A program made the position numbers and the translations under genes. A DNA stretch of 64,000 bases, filler included, from Collodictyon triciliatum (lineage: Eukaryota), in the NCBI GenBank assembly GCA_043381765.1. It is 25 parts of 25 records of this genome, joined end to end, with 100 filler letters (N's around TTAATTAATTAA, not from the genome) between each part and the next. Parts side by side here need not be neighbours in the genome. Positions count along the whole stretch, not along the records: positions 7,440 to 12,151 come from JBHJMP010008999.1; 24 more parts are not named here. One strand, written 5' to 3'. The notes beneath the pieces are model-generated. The model saw only the letters and a program-made list of their open reading frames with translations, was not told the origin of the DNA and made no database searches. Numbering within the stretch: the stretch's first letter is position 1; each line of letters opens with the position of its first letter. Below are positions 178-24,443 of the stretch, one piece after another.

Positions 178-1392
178 GCCTTACTGCTGGAAGGTCTAAA
201 GCAGACAAACTACTATGAAACACTTATCATCAAATACATTAAACTGCAAGAGAAAAATAGAGACATCGAAAAGGTATGAACTTGTCACATACATATTTCA
301 AAGAGTATGAGATAGTAATGGTACTCTTTAAACTCGCTTTATCCTTTCCTTACGCTTTCCTCACCCTTTTCGTTTTTTTTTTTTTTTGGGTCTGTGTTTT
401 TTCTTTTATTTTTTTTTCATTTTCATTTTGAGAAATATTTATATGGATGTATTATGATATCTTGAAATGGTATTCTTGACACACATAAATGAATTACTAT
501 CAGGCTCGTAAGGTACTTTATGAAGCTGTAAGCAAAGGAGGTCGTGGCACGCAGTTTATTAAGGCTTTGACAGAAGGGGCTTGGATGGAGGCCAGGGCTG
601 GGAATGAATCCCGAGCAAGAAATATATTTCAAGTATTGAACAATCATATGCACAATAAGATGCAATTAATGACACACACAAATATTCTTTTCATTATATT
701 CGGACCAATACTGATACCTGGCATAATATTATATAGTATCTCATCACAAGGGTTGATTCTTCTGGATTCCTTTACTACAATGCTTCCAAATTTGAAGAAA
801 AGTGCGGAAATTACTCAACCGCTTATGAGATTTCGATGAAGGCAGTGGAAAAAATCCCTCGATATAGCTTATTATGGTTTCAGTCTCTTCGGTTATCTGA
901 AAGAATGGTCTCTGCAGGATTGATTCCTCTCGCATGCATGAAGAAGTTAGTGGATGAATCCATCCAATATTTATCTAAGGATTGTTGCTGGAAAATCCAC
1001 TTTGAGTTTACTCTGTCGCTGGAGCGCTTGCTCGACAGAGAGAATTTAGCCACCTTTACGGATGTAAAGGCTGCGATGATCGAAGCACTTAAGTATTGCC
1101 CTGTCAATCAACGATGGAAGGTAGTTTCTCTTTCTTTCTTTTTCTCAGATATCGTGCTTTTTTCATCGATCCTGCACAAAAATTGAAAGGAAGAATAAAA
1201 AAAAATCGTACTTTTTTCATCGAGATATCAACAAAAGGAATAGTAATACCAACAATTAAGATGACAAAAATATCGATACTTTTAATGCTAATAACAAACA
1301 AACAAAGAAACAAACAAAGAAACAAACAAACGATTATATGAATGCAATTGAGAAAATAAAAATTCCACGTGCACAAATGTTGTATCTCAGCT

Positions 1393-7688: not shown

Positions 7689-10600
7689 CTACTCGGCCTT
7701 GGCCATGGATGCGTAAAGCCCGTCGCGGTATTGGAAGAACTGGGCGCCGAGTGTCTGCACGTGATTGGCCATTGCGCCCATGCACTCCTTGTGCTTTCTT
7801 TCCTCCTCGGCCATCTACGTCAACACAAGGATTTAACAAAGCCGCCATCATGCCTGACGATGAGGTGGCAGCAACATCAACAACCCCGCTGCGGGGCCTG
7901 ATTCCCTCACAACGGCAGCGTAATGCATTGCCTCACTCTGTGGCTAGCGGGCATGCATAGCTTTATTTTTCTTTCTCTATCTCTCTTTTATATATTATGT
8001 ATTATATTGTGAAAATAAAGACAGGCTTGTTGTTTGCCCGAAAACCACAGGAAAAATTGTGTATCATCTCTTGACAGCAACACATTTGCTTGTGGTACGT
8101 GTATCTCATGTGGTTCAAATAACGAATCACGATAGCACATCTTATATATAAATAACCTTTTGTTTACGCTCATCGATGCGCCGCTTCAACTCTTCAATTT
8201 TGCAATTTTCAGCCTTTCGAGCTTTCTCCAGAGATTGTTTTCTTTCGTTCACCCCACTGAGCTCTATAACACAGAGCATAAGACATCAGTGTCATGAAAG
8301 AGTAGCGTTTCATTAAAAAAAAAAAAAAAAATTAATATCGAGAAATCCTTTAAGAGAATGGTGATTAATAGTGTCTCCTTGATTGTGCAAAACCATTTTC
8401 TGCCATGCGAGTTCTGTTGATGCGCTTCTGTTGGAGCTGAGATAGCTGCTCGGTCTTTCCTGCCAATAACTTCACAGCATTCTGGGCAGATGGAATTAAA
8501 ATATTAATTTTGTCTCTTTAAATAAATACACCCCCTTCATATGGATAAGAAATGGCAAAGAAGGGATGGTTATGTGTATTATTGCTGCGTAATATTTACA
8601 CCACAAAGGCATAAGTATGAGATGATGATCAAAAAAAATCGATGTTTTGGTCTATGGGCAAGGTTGGGTATCTTTACCTCCTTCTGTCCTTTCAGTTCAC
8701 GAAGTTTGCGTTGCGATTCATCCACTTTCACGCGAAGTTCCTATGAATGATAAAATATTTTTAGAAACAATACGTCATTTTTTTTTCTTTATTCGATTCA
8801 AAGTAGAAACAATACGTCATGATTCTAAAAAAAAGTATGAAGAATGGTGGCTTATATAACGCTCATTAAAAGCGGTAAGATATACATGGCGCATGTGATG
8901 CAAAAACAAAAACCTTGATTTGGATTTCAAACTTGCTCTGGTCGTTGTACTTTTGTTTCAGTTCCTCCATAAATTTAATTGCCATTTTCAGGTCCTATAA
9001 TGATAAAACATGTTTGTAAGGTTTAGTATACATTATCCAATTGGATGGGTATATTTCAACATCATTTAAAATTACTCAAATGGTCGATGTTCTATGAAAC
9101 ACAAAGCAACTGAATTAAAAATGGAAAATAAAATTGAATTCTACAAGCATTTATTAAATGTTTATTTCATCGATATTGTCGGTAAATAACTACTAGTACA
9201 GAATACTCGAAAAATTAAAAAAAAATCACGAACGCTAATAATCTTGTCTAGTTCCTTCAGCCGTGCTTCTGTGTCTTTGAGCCTCAATTGGTTATCTGGA
9301 AAGAGAAAAACTACTTTAACTATCAACTTACCAATACAAAATATTTCATGAGTCAAATCGAACATTCACTCCATAATTAGCTTTTCAATTTGTCAAGTCT
9401 GGACGGGATTATTTCCATTTTATTTTGTTTTATTTTGTTTTATTTTGTTTTATTTTGTTTTATTTTGTTTTATTTTGTTTTATTTTGTTTTATTTTGTTT
9501 TATTTTGTTTTATTTTGTTTTATTTTGTTTTATTTTGTTTTATTTTGTTTTATTTTGTTTTATTTTGTTTTATTTTGTTTTATTTTGTNNNNNNNNNNNN
9601 NNNNNNNNNNNNNNNNNNNNNNNNNNNNNNNNNNNNNNNNNNNNNNNNNNNNNNNNNNNNNNNNNNNNNNNNNNNNNNNNNNNNNNNNNNNNNNNNNNNN
9701 NNNNNNNNNNNNNNNNNNNNNNNNNNNNNNNNNNNNNNNNNNNNNNNNNNNNNNNNNNNNNNNNNNNNNNNNNTGTTTTATTTTGTTTTGTTTTGTTTTG
9801 TTTTGTTTTGTTTTGTTTTGTTTTGTTTTGTTTTGTTTTGTTTTGTTTTGTTTTGTTTTGTTTTGTTTTGTTTTGTCAGTTAACGGTGCCTTTGAATGAC
9901 TATGGAAATCGTTCTATTAAATACTTAGGATTTCCTCTTCTTCGGATTTTATGCCTGCATCTAGTCGTTCGACTTCCTGTTTAAAAAAAAGCGAACACAA
10001 AAATAAGTGTCGGAAGCTAACCTTCATGTTTTCTTATAATAAGATCACATTTTTAATAGGCATATCCGTAAAGAGATGACTATACATAACCTGAATCTGC
10101 CCTTCAGGCGATGGTACAATCTGTTCCTGGATTAGGCGGATGGATGACTGTAGGTCATTCGACATTGTCTTCATTTCACGCTTTTAAATCACAAGGTTAG
10201 TGGTTAGTCTCAAATGGTAAGGTCGAAAAGAAAAAATTTTGAAGCTTTGGGTAGAACCCCAGTTGTAATCATACAAAAGAAAGAAAAGCGTGAGTAATTT
10301 ACAATCACCAACTTCATCAAAATGTCAATCAAACAAGTTCAAAAAGGATAGTTAAGAAAATGAATATCCCATTTGGCATATCTTGTCTAACCGACACCAG
10401 TATACTTTCAACCAGCATTGTTGATTCGGAGTTTGAGGCGTGCAAAAAGACATGTGGATATAGGAGTATAAGGGAGGTAGCTCACCAGCTTTGTTTGCAT
10501 CTGGTAGCATTCATCCTTTTTTTTGCTCGCCTCTTGCTTCACCTGAGCATGAACCGCATCCCTTTCTCCCATCTATATCAGTTAAATTAGTCAATTTAAG

Positions 10601-12513: not shown

Positions 12514-14492
12514 AAATCCAAAGCTTCTGGTTGTATTTGTTGTAATTACTTTTATGGTTTCATCAACATCCTCTGTATACCCTTTTCAAAGGTAATTTGA
12601 ATTTGAAAAGTGCATTCCGCTATAAAATTTCAACTCAAATATTGAAAACAGATGTCAGCATACAAGAGATGAGTTACTTGCCATGAAAGTTGAAGATGCA
12701 TTCCAAATCCTGCTGAGCTACTACGATGAAACATGTCCTTTGTTTAAAAAGCAGGACAAAAATTTTTCAGAATCTGACAATGCCCAAAAATTTGGAGAAC
12801 ATCTGTTCACAAATAGGCAAGGTGCTGAATGGAATTTTGACATGAAATTGCCATCCATTGAGAACAATTTAAACAAAAAAAATCAGTTGTCAAAGCATAT
12901 TGAGGTCAAGAAAAGAAGTTTGAGTAATGAAGGGAACCGAAAAAAGGCGGATAATTCATCTGTTACTCAATACGAACTCCTTGTTCAGCTTTATGATTTA
13001 CTTGGCGGCAATAATTGGTTTTATGCCACTGGATGGAAAATTAAAAGCATTCCTATTTGTGAGTGGCATGGGATATCATGTTATGATCGTTGTCTGGATA
13101 AAGATTTTAAGGTGATTTCTATAAATATTTTTAAGTGATATTGATTTAATATTGATACTATTTTTTTTTTTAGAACAACACATGCCCCGTCATCGGAATC
13201 AATTTGTCAGAAAATAATCTTTACGGTGACATCGAAGCTGCCTCTGCGATTTTTGATAGACTTCCATTTTTGCATTATTTGAATTTGAAATACAACTCTG
13301 TTTACGGGAATCTTCCAGATTTTAACCTTCCCAGTGTTTTGTATTTGGAACTTGATGTGAATCAACTTACCGGAACCATTCCAGACTTTCAAGCAATGCC
13401 AAATATTGAACATCTTGAGATTGATAGGAATGAACTAGAAGGCACAATTCCTGACTTTTCTGGAATTTCAAGTATAAAAGTCTTGATAATGGGAAAAAGT
13501 GATAAGATCGCAGGTATGAAATACTTTTTCAATATCAATAGTTCAATTCTAATTACACCAAATATTTTTTCAAGGAACCCTGCCTGAATTCTCTGGATTG
13601 CCGAATATTCATATTCTTGGGATTTACAGCTGCAAAGTTCATGGTTTTTTTTTTTTTATTGAATTAATTGAATCATTCCAATCAACACAGTCTAATTTTT
13701 TCTTTAGGAGTAATACCAAACTTCATGGGCATTCCGAATGTTTTGGAAATTTACCTGTTCAGTAGCCAATTAGCTGGTTATTTTCCTCATTAAATCATAA
13801 AAAATAATAACGAAATACTAACTTCATCTCGCAGGGACAGTTCCAAACTTCAGTGGAATTCATAGTGTTGAAATAATTATTCTTACCAATAATAAATTGA
13901 ATGGTAAGTTGAATGATTGTTCAATCAATCCCATTCCGCTTGAATCAAAAGTAAATTTGATCACTACACAGATAATTGATGAAAAAACGACCTTATACGA
14001 TAGGAAAAATTCCAAACTTCAATGGAATTCCGAATGTCAAAACAATTATTCTTACTAATAATCTGCTGAGTGGTATTAATTAATCATTATTTCTTCTATT
14101 ATTTAAATCAAATGAATGAAAAAATCTTATTAATCTGACAAATTACAACGCTCATATCACAGGAACGGTTCCAAACTTCAGTGGAATTTCAAAAGTCGAA
14201 ATAATTTATCTTGACAACAATCGCCTGACTGGTAGCTTTATGATAATTTAAACTAATATTAGGTGTCATATATTAATTTATACCACAGGAATGGTTCCAA
14301 ACTTCGATGGCATTCCAAATGTTGAATTAATTTCCCTATTTAGTAATCAACTGAATGGTGAGTATTATTATTGTTACCTTTAATATCGAAAAAAAAATAG
14401 TATAACTCTACACTGCAGGAACAATTCCAAATTTCGATGGCATTCCAAATGTTGAATTAATTTCTCTGTCCAGTAATAACCTGAATGGTGAG

Positions 14493-14586
<94 letters not shown>

Positions 14587-15656: not shown

Positions 15657-18167
15657 ATCATCGTGGGAGCAGCCTCTTTTGTGGTGAAATTATCAAAAGA
15701 CGCACTATAAAAGAACATTTAAGCACACATCATACGAGTAAGGGCCTTCCTTACAGACTAATGTTCATGATTATGAAAGCGCTCGCTTTTGTGATGGAAA
15801 GATACGTGAATGTCCAGCACTAAGAAAGATGCTTTCTTTTTATGTTGCTGCTGCTGCACTTTGGAATTATTGCTGGTGAAAAGCCACTGAATACAAATAT
15901 TCCAGCCCGTACAGTCTGTAATGTAAATCATTCACATTCATCGTTTACTCATCTAGAATCAGGATACATGAGCCTTATCATATTTATATGCACCATGCTA
16001 TCGCCAGGCTTGTATGCAAGTTTTTTTTTCTTGTGCAGCTTCAATACTAACACGTCAACTGGCATATACGTAGCTTTTGCGGCGTAGCGACTTTTAAAAT
16101 GGCATAACTTACTACAGATGCTGTAAAAATTCAAGGCCTTATTAGTATGAAAGGGGGTTTTTAGACAGGATACGAAATATAAGTTTAAGATATGACGTGC
16201 ACATCTGGTGATTTTTATACTCAGAAAAGTTGTGAAGCTATGATGTAGTTGGCAGTATGGATGATACTTTTCGTTAAGCACCTTTCTTTGTAAACTACAG
16301 ATATTGTTTGGTTAGACAACAAATTATTATCTTTTCTATCGCCAAAACTTTGATTAATCGTCGGCTTAGCATTGACATTCACGCATTCACAAATATGGCT
16401 TCGTGTGTGTAAACTTCGAGTGAAGAACTATTCTACAAATGAACTGTAAAAGTATGTACTAGAAAAGCCCATGGAGATAAAATGTGAAAACTCTAGAGCT
16501 TACCAAATTTCTCCTTTTATTCGATTCAAATGGTCCAGAGCTAACCTGTTTAAATGGTTTAAGAGAGAGGGAAAATTATAGGAGTATGTGTGACGAGTAG
16601 AAGTGTGGGCAAAGCAAACTGGAGATGCGTATGATACCATTTTTGTTACTAGAAAATATGATCAATATATATCTTTATTTTAAAAACAATAAGAATACTA
16701 ATAAATCTACCTTGCTGGATTTTTCTTATATTTCCTTTCAATTTCTGCAAGATGGTGGATGTTTGGCTTTGGTTCACTAATCGTCATTTATATGGGCGCT
16801 ACAATCCACCCTGCTGGATAATAAAATAAGTGAAATAACAAAGGGTGAGACAACGGCATACGAGGGGTGAATCTCAAACCACCATGGATACAATATAGTT
16901 CGCATTTGCATGTTTTAAAAATGGCAAATACGTGTTTCTTTCTTTTCTTTTCTTTTCTTTTTTTTCTTTTCTTTTTTTTTTTTGGAACGGATAAAGCGAA
17001 TCTTCTGGGATGCAGAATGGCGTCACACACAACAATTCACATAGTGAATCTATATGGGTCACCCATATCCAACACAGGCTAACAAAAACAAAAAATCAAA
17101 AAAAANNNNNNNNNNNNNNNNNNNNNNNNNNNNNNNNNNNNNNNNNNNNTTAATTAATTAANNNNNNNNNNNNNNNNNNNNNNNNNNNNNNNNNNNNNNN
17201 NNNNNTTTCTTTTTTCTTTTTTCTTTTTTCTTTTTTCTTTTTTCTTTTTTCTTTTTTCTTTTTTCTTTTTTCTTTTTTCTTTTTTCTTTTTTCTTTTTTC
17301 TTTGCCAGCATCTTGGAGGCCACAACGCGCGCTCTTGTTGCTGTGTTTCAGAGCGAATACTATGATCCATTTTGTCATGATGATTGTTTTGCTTTTCTTT
17401 CCTTTATGGAATGCTAATTCACACGAGTTAAATTTAAAATTCAGTACATTTCCTTATTAATAGTAATTTATTTATTTTAAATGTATTTGTTGATTTTTGG
17501 CTTAAAGATTGAATATGCTTTCCAAAACTGGTGCTCACGAAGTCGTATCTCATTATTGTGGAAAAATAAAACATACATACATAATTCAAAATTGTACCGG
17601 CGAAGACCATCATAAACCCAATAAAAATAGTCTATTAGTATATATTGATAGCTAAAAACATTTTGTGTCACAATCCTCATTCGAATCTTCTTCTGGCGGG
17701 GGTTTTCGTTTCAATTACTGCAAACCAGTTTTCAAAAATATCGATCTCTGCCTCACAGGAAACGTGGCGATTTCTGGTTGCGATGGACTCGCTCACAGGA
17801 AAACCCTTCTTCAGAGAACTGCTTGTGCGCTTATGCCACTGGCCAAAAACAACATTACAGTCACTCTATGACCAGCTGCAACATATTTTTGTTCTATCGT
17901 TGCGACCTCTGACGAAATAAAAAACCAATAAAAAAACCAATAAAAAAACCAATAAAAAAACCAATAAAAAAAACCAATAAAAAACCAATAAAAAAACCAA
18001 TAAAAAACNNNNNNNNNNNNNNNNNNNNNNNNNNNNNNNNNCCAATAAAAAAACCAATAAAAAAGCCAATAAAAAACCAATAAAAAAACAAAAAAACAAA
18101 AACAAAAACGAAGCAGATCAAAAGCCGTTCCGCTATTGAGTGATCTGTTTAAAATGAAGCGCAAACC

Positions 18168-18194
18168 CTTTGAATCGAATAAAGGATAAAAAAA
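18168..18194 (+). mobile_element. ~27-bp LINE 3'-tail insertion with 17-bp TSD (1 mismatch)
   Basis: aaaatgaagcgcaaacc (18151-18167) | ctttgaatcgaataaaggat(A)n | aaaatgaagcgtaaacc (18195-18211). Confidence 0.9.
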
Positions 18195-18639
18195 AAAATG
18201 AAGCGTAAACCGGTCGCATTTCGTCATTTTTTTCCACCGAGGCAAACCACCTCATTTCTTCGATGCATACCAGGATATAAACCCAAAAAATGATAAAACG
18301 AAGAGATACTCCGAATAGAAAATGAGTTCTTTGAATGATTGTGCTGAAAACGAAGTTAGAACTGCGGTGTGTCAAACACACGTTATATTGAATCCCGACA
18401 CACCCAATATAGGTTTTCTCATGTATTTTTCGCGTTCTCTCCGGCCGCGAAAGAGCCCCAGTCACGGAGAACAATTATTGGAGCAACTTCATCGGAACTT
18501 ACCATTTCGTGGGGATAATGCTGCCTTTATTCTGCATGTCTAGAAACACCTTTTTCACTCACCTAACCCATCACATCTCTCATTGAAAGAACACCAGCGA
18601 CAACATGCATTTCGTTGAATTGAGAAAACCACCCTTTCT

Positions 18640-19582: not shown

Positions 19583-19684
19583 NNNNNNNNNNNNNNNNNN
19601 NNNNNNNNNNNNNNNNNNNNNNNNNNTTAATTAATTAANNNNNNNNNNNNNNNNNNNNNNNNNNNNNNNNNNNNNNNNNNNNCA

Positions 19685-22058
19685 GACGGACTCGCCATTA
19701 CATCAACCAACCCTTCCATTTCGGTCATGAGCTCGCCTCCAAGAGTGATATCTGTCTCCAACGGATGCGGATACTATGTCAATGTGCAGTGGAGCTCCTG
19801 CAGTAATAGCCTTGGTGGCGGACTCGGACTCGTCAACTTGAATCTACCCAAGATTACTCAAATAGCAGTGACTGTCACAGATACTAAAATCACGAGTGCC
19901 AATGACCTATCAACAACTGTTGGCATACCCACGAAGAGCAACCTGAAGGTCATGTGCACGTTTGAGAATGGAAAGCAAAGTGACTACACATTAGACTCCA
20001 GGACAAACTATGACGACACTACTGCCGATACAAGCAATATAATCCAAATTGAGACGGCAATGGTGTCATCCAGCATCACAGAGGTCTATGTGGTTGCAAC
20101 AGGCAATGGCTTCGGAACCGCGACGATAGTAGTGACAGTCAACAACGCACTGAGTTTGCAAGGAAGCGTGGACATCAATGTGATTGGATTTGCGTCGCTG
20201 CGTGTCTCGTCCAGTCCATATCCAACATACACAGGCTCCAGCACAGTGTTACTGACAAAGCTGACTCGCTATGAGTGCGCACAAGTCTATCAAAGAGCGA
20301 CGCTGGCATTGTCCATGAGACTAACTGACAACTCTGTGCATGACATCACGTCAAAACCATTGACCGTATTCTCTGTACCCACAAGTCAGCAAAATGTTTT
20401 GGTTATCAAAGACAAAACAGTTCTTGAACCAACTGGCACAAACTTCGGAAATGCTACAATCACAGCCTCATACGGAGATGCGTCAGCTACAATAGACGTC
20501 GTGGTTGCGGACGAAACTGTGAGTGCAACATCGCTAGCAACCGTGTTTCCGTCAACATACACTGGTATCATCGGAACATCAACACAAAGCATCAAAGCGA
20601 CTGCCGTGTTCCAAGACGGAACAAAACATCCAACGGCTCACTCCATCACTGGCCTATTATCTTACACCAGCGATGACCCGACTTCAATAGCTATGGACAC
20701 CGCAGGAACTGCAACCATAAAAGCAAACTCACTCAGTATTGTAACGCTTACATCATCAACATGTTATGGAGTCGTAGGAACGTCGAGCACCTATGCCAAT
20801 CTTGGTCCGAATGTCGGCGATGTCGATATTGGAAGCACGAGCGGCCTTGCATTGAGTAACATCGCAGTCGGGTCCAGCTTGACAGTTCCTGTTCGTGTCA
20901 ACACGGGAACAAAGGCACTTGGAAGTATCGATAGTAGTCTTGTGTATGACGCAGACATATTCGATGTAATATCCTACTCTACTGGAAGTAGCTGGCCAGG
21001 TGGACAGTTAGAGATTACGCTGAACGACCCACCGGGAGTCATTCGCATTGTGGGAGCGACAAGTGCAACCAGCAACTCAAAGGGCACATTGGAGGTTGTC
21101 AAGCTAGTCATCACAAGCAAACAGAACGGACTATCATACTTTGCTGGCTTCATAACCAAGATGCTAGCTAACGATGCAGCGTCTTCGCCAATCGGAAGCA
21201 CACTTGGGCAAGGAGAGACAAGAGCAATAGTGGCTGGTAACGCTCCAGTAAAGAGCGGAACGGGCATCAATTCGAGGGCTTCTTTGAGTAATGGAATGAA
21301 TTTGGTTCTGGGACATCAAAGAACTGAAGCCATACAACAAGTTGGCAGGAAATCACAGACATGCGAACCAGCTGCTGTTCTTGGAAATACAGACGGAGAC
21401 TGCGAGTTCTCAGTCGGCGATGTCCAGTTTACATTGAGATATCTGGCCGGACTGGTCTCGGCACCAGTCCAGTCCTACCAACTTCAATACTTGGATGCGG
21501 ACAGAAATGGTAAGATTCAAGTACAAGATGCGATATACTTGATTCGAGTGCTGGCAAACAAATGGCGATTCTTCAATGTCCGCACCATAGCACCCACAAT
21601 ATCCAGCTCATATCTCCAAGTTTCAGTTGACTCGCAGACAGCTGATATGGTGTACTCGTCGGCCAAGACGTCATATGATATAATTTTCTTGACAACATTG
21701 AACACAGATATGAGGATTACATTAGGGACAAACAAACAGACGTTGGCCGAAGGGCTACAGGTATCGGGCCAGGACTTCAACAACGGAACGTTCAGTGTCA
21801 TTGGAAATACATACAGGTCAGAGGTTATTGGTGTCTCCATCCATCTGAAGACTGTCGACGGTCTTGGGCAGTCATCGAATGACCGAGACGTAACATTATA
21901 TCAAGGAGTAGGAGGCACGTATGTGAGTTTTACAACAATAGCCGCTATATTTGACGCAACCCAATCCCAATCCCAATCCCAATCCCAATCCCAATCCCAA
22001 TCCCAATCCCAATCCCAATCCCAATCCCAATCCCAATCCCAATCCCAATCCCAATCCC
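19685..22058 (+). CDS. Large intronless surface protein: TMEM132-like bacterial-Ig (BIG) repeats, cohesin domain (~20860-21250), dockerin (~21380-21565), QS repeat; open at both contig ends
   Basis: More than 790 aa open frame, rich in Thr/Ser/Val. Cohesin-like VGSSLTVPVRVNTGTKALGSIDSSLVYDADIFDV..PPGVIRIVG..GTLEVVKL. Dockerin duplicated Ca-loops GNTDGDCEFSVGDVQFTLRYLAG and DADRNGKIQVQDAIYLIRVLA. Confidence 0.8.
21960..22058 (+). repeat. (CCAATC)n coding microsatellite = (QS)n
   Basis: In frame at the end of the 19685 ORF. Confidence 0.9.
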
Positions 22059-22166
22059 NNNNNNNNNNNNNNNNNNNNNNNNNNNNNNNNNNNNNNNNNN
22101 NNTTAATTAATTAANNNNNNNNNNNNNNNNNNNNNNNNNNNNNNNNNNNNNNNNNNNNGTTGAGAG

Positions 22167-22748: not shown

Positions 22749-23182
22749 GCAACTGTATTTTGTTGACATGACAGCCGGTGTCCATTCTGTTCCGAAGAAA
22801 ATTGGGCATCTTCAATGAAGAACACAGTTTGCATCCATTACGCATGGAATCAAAAACGCTGGGTGATTATTTTAAAAATTACCACATTATCCTCCTTTTT
22901 TTTATTTTATCATTCGTTTAATTTTATGCTTGGCGAACCAAAGCCGACATCTCCACTATCCTACGAAAAAATTGAAAGGAAGAATAAAAAAAAATCATTC
23001 ATTTAACTTTAATGAGACAATTTTTGTCTTTCATATCTATGCCGAAATGTATGGAGTTTTAGATAATCTCTATCCCCAATTTCTTTTTTATTCAGCAAGT
23101 TAATTGTTATTTATATATATATATATATAAACAGCCTTTTATAATATAATTATTATTGGGGTACTCACAGACCAAAACGAGC

Positions 23183-24265
23183 TTTTTTTTCCTATATTCG
23201 ATTCAAAATGCAGCGAAGTTATGCCATACAAAGGGGCGGGATGGGAGCGCATGGTAGAGAGCGAACGCGAGTAGGAGAAGACACTACCGTGGAGAGGGTA
23301 GCACTGGAAAGAAATCAGTGATAGCGAGTTGGTCAGGTGGGCGACCCAACTGGTTGATTGGTTGCGTGGGTAGCAGGGGTTGGATATGCTGTGGGAGATA
23401 TCGCACGACACATTCCCACATCTCTATCCGCTTGCAGTCAGAGTAGCGAAGAACGCGGGCGTGTTTCAGCAGGCTGTTCAGGAAGCTGCATTGCACGAGG
23501 CTTTCTGTCATGGATATATTGATTTCTCGTTCGTTCGAATCATTAGAGTGAGAGAATGCACGCACACTCCATAAGGGCCACAGCATATGTCCCCTTGTGA
23601 CTGTCCAGAGTATTCTAGAGTCGTGGGTCATTTGGTATTGTGCACCAAACAGGATGTCAGACGCGCTGAGTCGGTTGGGAGCATAATCAAGGTCAGAGAG
23701 CATCTTGTGGGTAGACTCTGTCACTTTTTGAGCAAGGGAGCACTTCGCAAATGTGTGTTTGATAGAGTCGTCTCCACTATGGCACATGGTGCATTCTGGA
23801 GAGGTCGTTGCTGCATGGACTACGTACACAACTATCCACAGCTCTCTGTTGGAGATATTGAGCAGTAGGGCGCGGTGTTTCGGGAGTAACTGAGGTAATC
23901 GGGCTTGCTTCCAGCTTTTGACTATTGGCGGGTCTATAATGCCTATAGTTTCGGCCCAACGACTCATCTTCTCCGGTTTGTAAGGATTCGGACTGATGAT
24001 TTTATATCGAAACAGCTTGGAGTATGCCATGGCCATCGAGAAATGCAGAGAATCAGGCGTAATGGACCGCCTTTGGTTCTTCAGGCGAAAGAAAAATGGC
24101 AACGGCGCTCCGTATGAGATGGGGCGACGTGAGCGCCATTCTCCTTTGTTTTTCGGGACGGCTGTGGTTGGGGTTGTTTCTTTGGGGTGTAATCTTTTAT
24201 CTTCCTTGTTTGGTTCAAGAAAAGATATCTTGAATTTAGTAGTTTTATTCTTAACTTTACTGCCG
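23183..24265 (-). mobile_element. 5'-truncated L1/Tx1-like LINE: ORF2 C-terminus (zf-RVT/CCHC), ~95-nt 3' UTR and poly(A)
   Basis: ORF 23284-24102 has SPECTMCHSGDDSIKHTFAKC and LWPLWSVR. The 3' UTR is near-identical to 27111-27277 and ends ...gaatcgaatatagga(A)n. Confidence 0.85.
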
Positions 24266-24443
24266 CTTCACATTCTTACCTTCACTTTACGCATGATAGT
24301 CTCATTTAGATTAAGATAAAAGAATATAAACAGCTCAAACTCTACATAGATTTAGAGGAATTGTCAAATGTCGAAGGAGGTAAGCTAGTTCAGAGCAATG
24401 GAGAGGTCTTTTTTCACGCTTGATTTATTTTTGTTATAAATGT

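Follow-up and report, generated by a model that had tools for sequence, protein, structure and literature searches.

At positions 8762..8820 of the Collodictyon triciliatum DNA analysed here, a stretch of 64,000 nucleotides referred to as the window, the last few nucleotides of a LINE stand alone between two copies of a short target sequence. The locus raises the question of how a retrotransposon comes to insert little more than its own tail, and of what would stop the copying at one and the same base in several such insertions, as the original prediction had it. The insert (8779-8803, minus strand) consists of C, the 16-mer core TTTGAATCGAATAAAG and A8, and its target-site duplications (TSDs) at 8762-8778 (TAGAAACAATACGTCAT) and 8804-8820 are identical at 17 of 17 positions.

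LINE-tail insertions and their source

The core has 13 matches in the window at up to two mismatches, against 0.18 expected, a number reached by none of 100 shuffled sequences. Two of these matches are the 3' ends of LINE fragments, and the remaining 11 are stand-alone inserts. The fragments define family A: one of ~1.26 kb (23183..24440, minus strand) contains the C-terminus of ORF2 with a Cys-His motif, ending QLAITDFF..., followed by the 3' UTR, the core and A8; the other, of at least 167 nt (27111..27277, plus strand; its 5' end lies in the mask), is the consensus-like source of the tail (...GCTGCAC TTTGAATCGAATAAAGG A8). The claim that the core is the extreme 3' end of the LINE thus holds for both fragments. 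The terminal segment, CUUUGAAUCGAAUAAAGG, is AU-rich (33% GC) and includes AAUAAA, and the 40 nt upstream, in the 3' UTR, are 60% GC.

Both LINE copies are truncated downstream of the reverse transcriptase, and no N-terminal endonuclease is present in the window. The ORF at 23284-24267 (minus strand) matches zf-RVT with an E-value of 1.5e-5 and 26 bits, just under the cut-off of 27.5; a relative that is 55% identical (P0003) reaches 36.4 bits with the same domain, and the CxxC...H....C motif is visible, which places the Cys-His (zf-RVT) element in the family A C-terminus. A protein word search with longer lengths returned no relatives; those we describe came from a full HMMER search, in which the C-terminal 327 aa found distant relatives at 26-32% identity (E 2e-9 to 4e-5). 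Three of the distant relatives are full-length (1226-1275 aa), and all carry Exo_endo_phos and RVT_1, with zf-RVT in two of the three. Judged from its sequence, the family A source is an L1-like, poly(A)-ended LINE, with a putative APE/RT architecture that is read from these distant relatives only.

The family A stubs hold the last 17-24 nt of the LINE, followed by an A-rich tail of 6-10 nt. TSDs, present in nine of the 11 stand-alone inserts (five strong, four moderate), measure 13-17 bp and consist of unique target sequence, with the A-tail always adjoining the downstream copy; in young copies TSD length is uniform, at 16-19 bp. Besides the insert at 8779-8803, three begin with C and the 16-mer: 18168-18194 (18151..18211, plus strand), which continues with GAT and A7 and has 17-bp TSDs with one mismatch; 44004-44027 (43988..44043, minus strand), with G and A6 and TSDs identical at 16 of 16 positions; and 55428-55460 (55415..55470, plus strand), with GAAAGAATA9 and a TSD (ATAATTAACTATT / ATAAACTATT) of 13 vs 10 nt that differs by a 3-nt indel (shuffle p ~0.03). 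On the minus strand, an apparent 3' splice site (..ctgcag) follows the insert at 44004-44027 after 7 nt. Two further copies are longer: 42569-42600 (42553..42616, minus strand; GCTGCAC, the 16-mer, AG and A7, with TSDs identical at 16 of 16 positions) starts 7 nt upstream of the core, and the 76-nt insert at 54884-54959 (54867..54976, minus strand; 17-bp TSDs, two mismatches) starts 53 nt upstream of it.

Older inserts are found at 16505-16533 (16492..16546, minus strand; CCA, the core with one mismatch and a decayed tail, 13-bp TSDs with two mismatches) and 36283-36312 (36272..36323, plus strand; ACAC and the core with one mismatch, 11-bp TSDs with one mismatch). A probable old insert at 51511-51536 (51495..51552, plus strand; core with two mismatches, G/A tail, 16-bp TSD-like repeat with three mismatches) adds to the copies listed originally. 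A degenerate copy at 54099..54119 (plus strand; TGCAC and the core with two mismatches) has a tail that enters an (AAT)n array and the mask, placing its TSD out of reach, and a degenerate core at 31348..31363 (plus strand, two mismatches) has no significant TSD. The stand-alone insertions predicted at 8779, 18168, 42569, 44004, 54884 and 55428, as well as the degenerate copies, are real, and the perfect or near-perfect TSDs claimed for 8779-8803, 18168-18194, 42569-42600 and 44004-44027 are borne out.

A second LINE family, related to the first, has left inserts of the same kind. Family B is represented by 1170-1204 (1151..1223, plus strand; 35 nt, ...CTGCACAAAAATTGAAAGGAAGAATA8, 19-bp TSDs with one mismatch), 22927-22993 (22909..23011, plus strand; 67 nt, 18-bp TSDs with two mismatches) and 16721-16802 (16704..16819, minus strand; 82 nt, 17-bp TSDs with two mismatches). 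These three inserts have no common start. Together, the 11 family A and three family B stubs amount to 14 per 61.7 kb of readable sequence, or about one per 4.4 kb.

Origin of the insertions

We scanned the window for a TSD plus A-tail blind to the motif, accepting inserts from 3-6 nt upwards. All seven matches of the first scan are LINE tails; among 36 direct-repeat pairs in the second, five have the polarity of target-primed reverse transcription (TPRT) and none the control polarity. At all seven well-defined sites the upstream flank is T-rich and the TSD begins with A (A(T)), a pattern that fits nicking by an endonuclease at a T-rich/A site. The proposed L1-type signature is thus recovered in each of its parts: an A-tail of the right polarity, TSDs of 13-19 bp and the T-rich/A nick site. 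The stubs are dead-on-arrival, extremely 5'-truncated TPRT products of the L1-like family A. A non-retro origin through events at the DNA level (filler DNA inserted at breaks, or duplication by slippage) has a negligible probability and is for practical purposes ruled out by the scan, the target motif and the polarity control: such events do not account for a constant A-tail polarity (five against zero for the control), for uniform TSDs of 16-19 bp in young copies and a target motif common to the sites, or for inserts identical to a LINE 3' end. That the stubs would be a major source of short duplications also stands for the window where non-tandem duplications are concerned, as they account for five of the 36 direct-repeat pairs and for four of the small number of perfect non-tandem pairs.

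In 'stringent' LINE/SINE pairs, such as eel UnaL2/UnaSINE1, the SINE shares the 3' tail of its partner LINE. The stubs resemble SINEs of this type in being short non-autonomous units that end in a LINE 3' terminus and are inserted by the LINE machinery. They differ from them in having no head, promoter or body, and in grading into longer LINE fragments; the shared 3' tail is present, and a polymerase III promoter or a tRNA/7SL/5S head is not. The original prediction had offered a processed mini-RNA acting as a minimal SINE, i.e., a separate RNA, ~18 nt long before its poly(A), that would use the LINE machinery for its insertion. The constant 5' end of four copies and a tail identical to that of the LINE would fit such an RNA, but 18 nt are too small for a polymerase III promoter or a head domain, the stubs have no Rfam match, there is no master locus distinct from the LINE, and copies that hold 3, 7 and 53 LINE nucleotides more form a continuum with ordinary truncated LINEs. 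With nothing in the unit able to act as a promoter, we consider a minimal SINE very improbable.

Position of the 5' boundary

The four inserts for which a common start had been proposed (8803, 18168, 44027 and 55428) do begin at one C, all four of them. Among the 11 stand-alone copies, three more start 1-4 nt upstream of this C, boundaries being uncertain in old copies, and one at most 5 nt upstream; one start lies 7 nt upstream, one 53 nt upstream, and one is unplaceable. Of the predicted fixed template end of ~20 nt, what stands is a mode at C (four of 11 copies); what does not is a single universal end. The breakpoints are not dispersed, as had been claimed: nine of the 12 placeable copies start within 11 nt (P ~7e-17 if starts fell uniformly along the 1240 nt that the longest copy spans). 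The peak at the exact base is, in this window alone, only moderately significant, with P 0.0035 for the five clear copies, four of which share one base, and P 0.065 with all nine short copies over 11 positions.

The starts are bounded on one side: the minimum insert is 24 nt (17 nt of template), the motif-blind scans contain none shorter, and a constant-hazard model gives this lower length bound a P of ~4e-4. On the other side, the spread from the mode at C decays into the GC-rich sequence. The stop position coincides with the border between the AU-rich terminal segment and the GC-rich 3' UTR. Three of the four junctions at C have no microhomology, and the off-mode copy at 42578 (insert 42569-42600) has 3 nt (CTC) at its 5' junction. 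Overall, the mechanism is ordinary TPRT, stopping unusually early and often unusually precisely.

The shared C might be mere sampling noise on short, skewed lengths, with LINEs terminating very early and no special site. The scattered starts in family B (35, 67 and 82 nt) and in other family A copies (41-51 and 76 nt) point this way, as does the P of 0.065 for all short copies. Four of five clear-boundary copies at one base (P 0.0035) and zero copies below 17 nt of template in the motif-blind scans count against it, and we hold it to be improbable.

The copies of 41-51 nt (including A8) come from public data. Public sequence runs (23 rows, mostly metatranscriptome contigs, none of them DNA of Collodictyon triciliatum) were available, and the assembled contigs of four runs were compared with 27122-27511, which covers the LINE 3' end. 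Loose ends at 27227, 27232, 27235 and 27237 mark these other family A copies; the copy with its loose end at 27227, present in runs X1 and X3, has as its first base the C of another CTTTG that lies 25 nt upstream. The summed contigs of the four runs have no depth step at 27252, a comparison that is uninformative as matches of ~26 nt were probably missed. In one X1 contig, 27151 is connected to 27252 through CCC. A metagenome scan with an 18-letter pattern returned at least 115 loci; among the matches listed, only one (L030, 1157 nt, with ~1 kb of the LINE-A 3' end) is a true relative, and the others are chance matches, many of them in one conserved bacterial gene. A viral-contig scan gave four loci, two of which equal the chance matches L070 and L022 in length.

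Cause of the stop

A reverse transcriptase stop caused by RNA structure, as first suggested, finds no support from folding the LINE 3' end and 3' UTR. The 26-nt tail does not fold (MFE 0), no stable structure was found in the 167-nt 3' UTR (z -0.58) or in the 78-nt ends (z +0.8 to +1.25), and folds around the breakpoint are no better than those of shuffles, none being stable or reproducible at or near the boundary. GCUGCA is paired in all eight folds, but with differing partners (five); a long-range helix as barrier is not supported, as the partners shift with the folding window. A hairpin candidate was dropped, being present in only one of eight longer folds. No Rfam family or ribozyme was found at the LINE 3' end, where the best scores are 10.6-14.1 bits vs cut-offs of 40-52.

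Alternatively, the template might be cut beforehand. A nuclease of the host, a slicer guided by small RNAs or a decay pathway would cleave either LINE RNA or the intermediate of TPRT at ..GCA|CUUUG.., and the reverse transcriptase would run to the new 5' end and jump to the top strand, producing a constant start. The absence of microhomology at three of the four junctions at C is what a jump from a template end would be expected to give, with the 3 nt of the off-mode young copy alongside; the start of the 27227 copy at the second CTTTG hints at a sequence-defined site; and an account of L1 truncation prefers host cleavage over polymerase failure (PMC10830420). Against a pre-cut template stand the missing ribozyme or other Rfam family at the LINE 3' end, the copies starting 1-7 nt upstream of C, and the lack of a common start in family B. 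We regard it as rather unlikely.

A barrier or checkpoint at the AU-rich/GC-rich border is the most likely cause of the stop. In the corresponding scheme, the LINE endonuclease would nick the bottom strand and the freed 3' end would prime on the poly(A); the reverse transcriptase would copy the AU-rich terminal segment without falling off and would very often fail on reaching the GC-rich body of the 3' UTR. A nick in the top strand, 16-17 bp away, could then resolve the stalled intermediate, with second-strand synthesis taking over prematurely and, in most cases, without microhomology. A checkpoint might consist in the C-terminal RNA-binding part not releasing a 3' UTR element that anchors the template, by comparison with human ORF2p; equivalently, the enzyme might stall where it enters a GC-rich segment that is paired or bound by protein. 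Family B and the loose-end family A copies of 41-51 nt indicate that very early exit is general. The lower length bound, the mode with its spread into the GC-rich side, the step in GC content and the junctions lacking microhomology also speak for this reading. The missing fold at the boundary, the family B inserts without a common start, a peak made of four copies and the processivity reported for human ORF2p count against a barrier. Taken as a whole, extreme 5' truncation of TPRT products with a barrier or checkpoint at this border is probably the right explanation. A stricter version, in which the abort point 17-18 nt into the template is defined by sequence, through a host cut of the RNA or TPRT intermediate or through an obligatory anchor-release checkpoint, we put forward as a tentative proposal with a small chance of being correct.

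The human data bear on several of these steps. According to one study of human ORF2p, 15 nt of single-stranded template separate the active site from a stem in the grip of the C-terminal segment, and this segment must pry the upstream RNA element open (PMC10830416); early top-strand nicking and premature second-strand synthesis have been linked to 5' truncation (PMC7617806); and another study depicts ORF2p as highly processive, its authors preferring to explain truncation by host cleavage (PMC10830420). Family A would resemble human ORF2p in having a defined single-stranded stretch (17-18 nt, against 15 nt in human), although anchoring is presumed here. It differs from human L1 anchoring in that the human stretch is the poly(A) itself, with no fixed truncation point described in these accounts, and from the human ORF2p template in that no stem is predicted with confidence in the family A 3' UTR.

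Dead-on-arrival, 5'-truncated copies made by TPRT are reported for human L1, our reference for L1-type LINEs (PMC2912911, PMC10830420, PMC7617806). The stubs share with them the poly(A) tail, TSDs of ~13-19 bp, an A/T-rich nick site and the loss of the 5' part, and the distant full-length relatives of family A share the APE, RT and Cys-His architecture of L1. Human L1 copies are described as 'often a few hundred base pairs' (PMC10830420), and one L1 mapping method covers only insertions of at least 150 bp (PMC6407172); by contrast, nine of the 12 placeable family A copies keep 17-24 nt, with a hard minimum and a modal start. Microhomology is reported for truncated L1, whereas family A junctions at the mode mostly lack it. 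In the open-access full-text literature, we found no description of LINE copies confined to ~20 nt with a fixed start, and nothing on retrotransposons of Diphylleia relatives.

What makes most LINE insertions lose their 5' part is an unsolved question, and a one-base stop combined with a hard minimum length would offer a handle for separating a barrier, a ruler and a pre-cut template. If the abort point proved true, this would be the first natural system with LINE 5' truncation at a known base. For the genome, the stubs are too short for standard repeat masking, some lie in introns near splice sites (44004-44027), and each leaves a duplication of 16-17 bp and introduces an AATAAA signal.

Tail-only inserts and their target-site duplications

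The reported site lies in AT-rich eukaryotic DNA (32–43% GC across the window), interrupted by periodic masks of 44+12+44 N. On the minus strand it reads ATGACGTATTGTTTCTA / C TTTGAATCGAATAAAG AAAAAAAA / ATGACGTATTGTTTCTA, i.e. a 25-nt insert flanked by perfect 17-bp direct repeats. The 16-mer core TTTGAATCGAATAAAG, the 3′ end of an L1-like LINE that we call family A, has 13 matches in the window at up to two mismatches versus 0.18 expected, and none of 100 shuffles reached this number. In two of these matches the core terminates a LINE fragment at its 3′ end, and the other eleven are stand-alone inserts (stubs), nine of them supported by a target-site duplication (TSD) and five strongly so, which bears out the original prediction of ~25-bp tail-only inserts with TSDs.

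Four copies are young: 8779–8803 (TSD 17/17), 44004–44027 (16/16), 42569–42600 (16/16) and 18168–18194 (17 bp, one mismatch). Among the older ones, the 76-nt insert at 54884–54959 has a 17-bp TSD with two mismatches, 55428–55460 has a TSD with a 3-nt indel (shuffle p ~0.03), 16505–16533 a 13-bp TSD with two mismatches (p ~0.04), 36283–36312 an 11-bp TSD with one mismatch (p ~0.003) and 51511–51536 a 16-bp TSD-like repeat with three mismatches (p ~0.02). No TSD was found around the copy at 31348, nor at 54099, where the tail merges with an (AAT)n array and meets a mask.

We also scanned the window without reference to the motif, for direct repeats around a short spacer ending in an A-run, leaving out tandem arrays. 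With TSDs of at least 13 bp, at most two mismatches and spacers of 6–90 nt, all seven matches were LINE tails: four of family A, with inserts of 24, 25, 27 and 32 nt, and three of family B, a second LINE whose 3′ end (...AAATTGAAAGGAAGAATA(n)) aligns as a relative of that of family A, with inserts of 35, 67 and 82 nt and TSDs of 19, 18 and 17 bp, respectively. With TSDs of at least 11 bp, at most one mismatch and spacers of 3–60 nt, 36 repeat pairs were obtained, five with the polarity of target-primed reverse transcription (TPRT) and none with the control polarity, in which the A-run stands at the wrong end. A T-rich stretch lies directly upstream of the TSD at all seven well-defined sites; the first TSD letter is A in all seven and the second T in six, a pattern that fits an endonuclease preference common to both families. 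The TSDs of two independent family A inserts (18151–18167 and 42601–42616) open with the same eight letters, ATGAAGCG, in flanks otherwise unrelated, and a third (8804–8820) begins ATGACG, with its first four letters in common with this pair; this shared opening could be fortuitous, or could mean that the endonuclease prefers a longer motif.

The source LINE and its copies in public data

Family A is represented by a ~1.26-kb fragment at 23183–24440 (−), which encodes the ORF2 C-terminus with a Cys-His motif (zf-RVT match, E 1.5e-5), and by a 3′ end of at least 167 nt at 27111–27277 (+), whose 5′ end falls inside a mask. Searched by BLAST with the 1266-nt LINE end, the window returned tails only and no further piece of the LINE body. 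With the 327-aa C-terminal ORF as query, HMMER gave 16 proteins, three of them full length (1226–1275 aa, 26–32% identity over the C-terminus); Exo_endo_phos and RVT_1 are present in all three and zf-RVT in two, the domain set of an L1-type ORF2. The ORF2 of the window LINE ends ...QLAITDFFPVLPSPR, and the ORF end at 23284–23330 (−) reads ...DQLAITDFFPVLPSPR*. Near this end, QLAITDFF matches Qxx[ILM]xx[FY][FY], the consensus of PCNA-interacting boxes.

We found no public DNA run of Collodictyon triciliatum, and compared contigs of four other public runs over 27122–27511, i.e. the LINE 3′ end and its downstream flank. The tail is highly multi-copy in two of them (188 contigs in X1 and 157 in X3, with summed depths in the thousands) and occurs at low depth in X2, a metatranscriptome (2 contigs), and X10, a DNA metagenome (20 contigs). 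Summed depth rises ~2- to 4-fold, depending on the run, across the last 150 nt of the LINE, a rise consistent with numerous short copies. Among the loose ends listed, those at 27227, 27232, 27235 and 27237 correspond to copies of 41–51 nt of LINE sequence, counting an A8 tail. Summed depth in the four runs has no step at 27252; assembler words exceed the ~26 nt of a stub, and stubs were probably left unplaced, so that this result has no bearing on a hot spot at that base. In one X1 contig, LINE position 27151 is followed by CCC and then directly by the C at 27252; this could be a stub that landed inside a different LINE copy, or else a variant with a deletion that ends exactly at this C. The downstream flank 27329–27511 is itself repeated in X1 and X3 (summed depth 60–460) and probably belongs to another repeat family. 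Of the loci matched in metagenomes (at least 115), 115 were listed, and one of these is a true relative.

Other features of the window include a GC-rich minisatellite at 37562–39217, in which 30.4 copies of a 54-nt unit match at 84% and both strands have long open frames, and tandem ~130-nt units with intron-like spacers at 14010–14493, apparently the repeated exons of a repeat protein. An 827-aa open frame at 19631–22114 (+), with no Pfam match and a hexamer repeat at its end ((CCCAAT)n, 21960–22058), is probably an expressed gene, since part of its sequence words occur in many freshwater metatranscriptome runs.

Where the copies start

The four copies that had been said to begin at one C do so, 1 nt upstream of TTTG (8787, 18169, 44011 and 55429). 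This C (LINE position 27252) opens the second of two CTTTG pentamers that lie 25 nt apart in the LINE 3′ end (27227–27231 and 27252–27256). The proposal of a single shared 5′ boundary holds as a mode but not as a rule, since other copies start further upstream: one with TGCAC, at most 5 nt from TTTG, one with GCTGCAC, 7 nt away, and one 53 nt away. Three old copies with uncertain boundaries start CCA, ACAC and TCC, 1–4 nt upstream of TTTG, and one further copy is unplaceable.

The clustering is beyond doubt, with 9 of 12 starts in one 11-nt zone (P ~7e-17 under a uniform distribution of starts along the longest copy, 1240 nt). Within this zone, one base is common to four of the five copies with clear boundaries (P = 0.0035), and the probability of at least four at one base among all nine short copies is 0.065; on the window alone, the exact-base start is thus only moderately supported. 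As neither motif-blind scan gave an insert shorter than 24 nt, with spacers allowed from 6 and 3 nt, a minimum template of 17 nt holds for this sample, and a constant-hazard model fitted to the nine short copies gives a probability of ~4e-4 that none would be shorter.

Possible causes of the early stop

Folding of the LINE 3′ UTR around the breakpoint had been suggested as a check. The 26-nt tail has an MFE of 0, the 167-nt 3′ UTR a z-score of −0.58 and the 78-nt ends +0.8 to +1.25. GCUGCA, directly upstream of the hot-spot C, is paired in all eight folds (two LINE copies at four window sizes) with five different partners; no helix at the breakpoint is reproducible across them, and a structure-induced stop is therefore not supported. 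Known RNA families gave no match near threshold at the LINE end and one tRNA only across the window (tRNA-Lys (CTT), 58823–58894 (+)).

The copied tail segment is 33% GC and contains AAUAAA, and the next 40 nt are 60% GC. Template lengths are cut off sharply at the short end and peak at one value, and from this peak the starts spread a little way into the GC-rich sequence, the shape that would be expected from a barrier met after unhindered copying. For human L1 ORF2p, PMC10830416 describes a 15-nt single-stranded template between the active site and an RNA stem, compared with the 17-nt minimum here, and a C-terminal segment that grips this stem and has to pry it open. According to PMC7617806, early nicking of the top strand is possible, and second-strand synthesis that begins prematurely then yields truncation. 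From the distribution shape, the human anchoring and the early nick, we favor a reverse transcriptase that would copy the AU-rich terminal segment unhindered and then fail when it must leave its anchoring element or, alternatively, stall where it meets GC-rich sequence that is bound or paired. Its chief rival is a template cut beforehand. PMC10830420 argues for a high processivity of ORF2p and for host cleavage as the likelier cause of truncation. Junctions at the C lack microhomology in three of four cases, with a single ambiguous A in the other, which agrees with a jump from a template end; the copy starting 7 nt upstream has a 3-nt microhomology. A further copy, present in X1 and X3, has its start at 27227, where the first CTTTG opens, a hint of a template cut at a sequence-defined site.

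Whichever way they are truncated, the stubs are dead-on-arrival LINE copies made by TPRT, and the minimal SINE considered in the original prediction is unlikely. Ordinary in kind, they are unusual in degree, with templates of 17–24 nt, a hard minimum and a modal one-base start. This hot spot would make the cause of LINE 5′ truncation testable.
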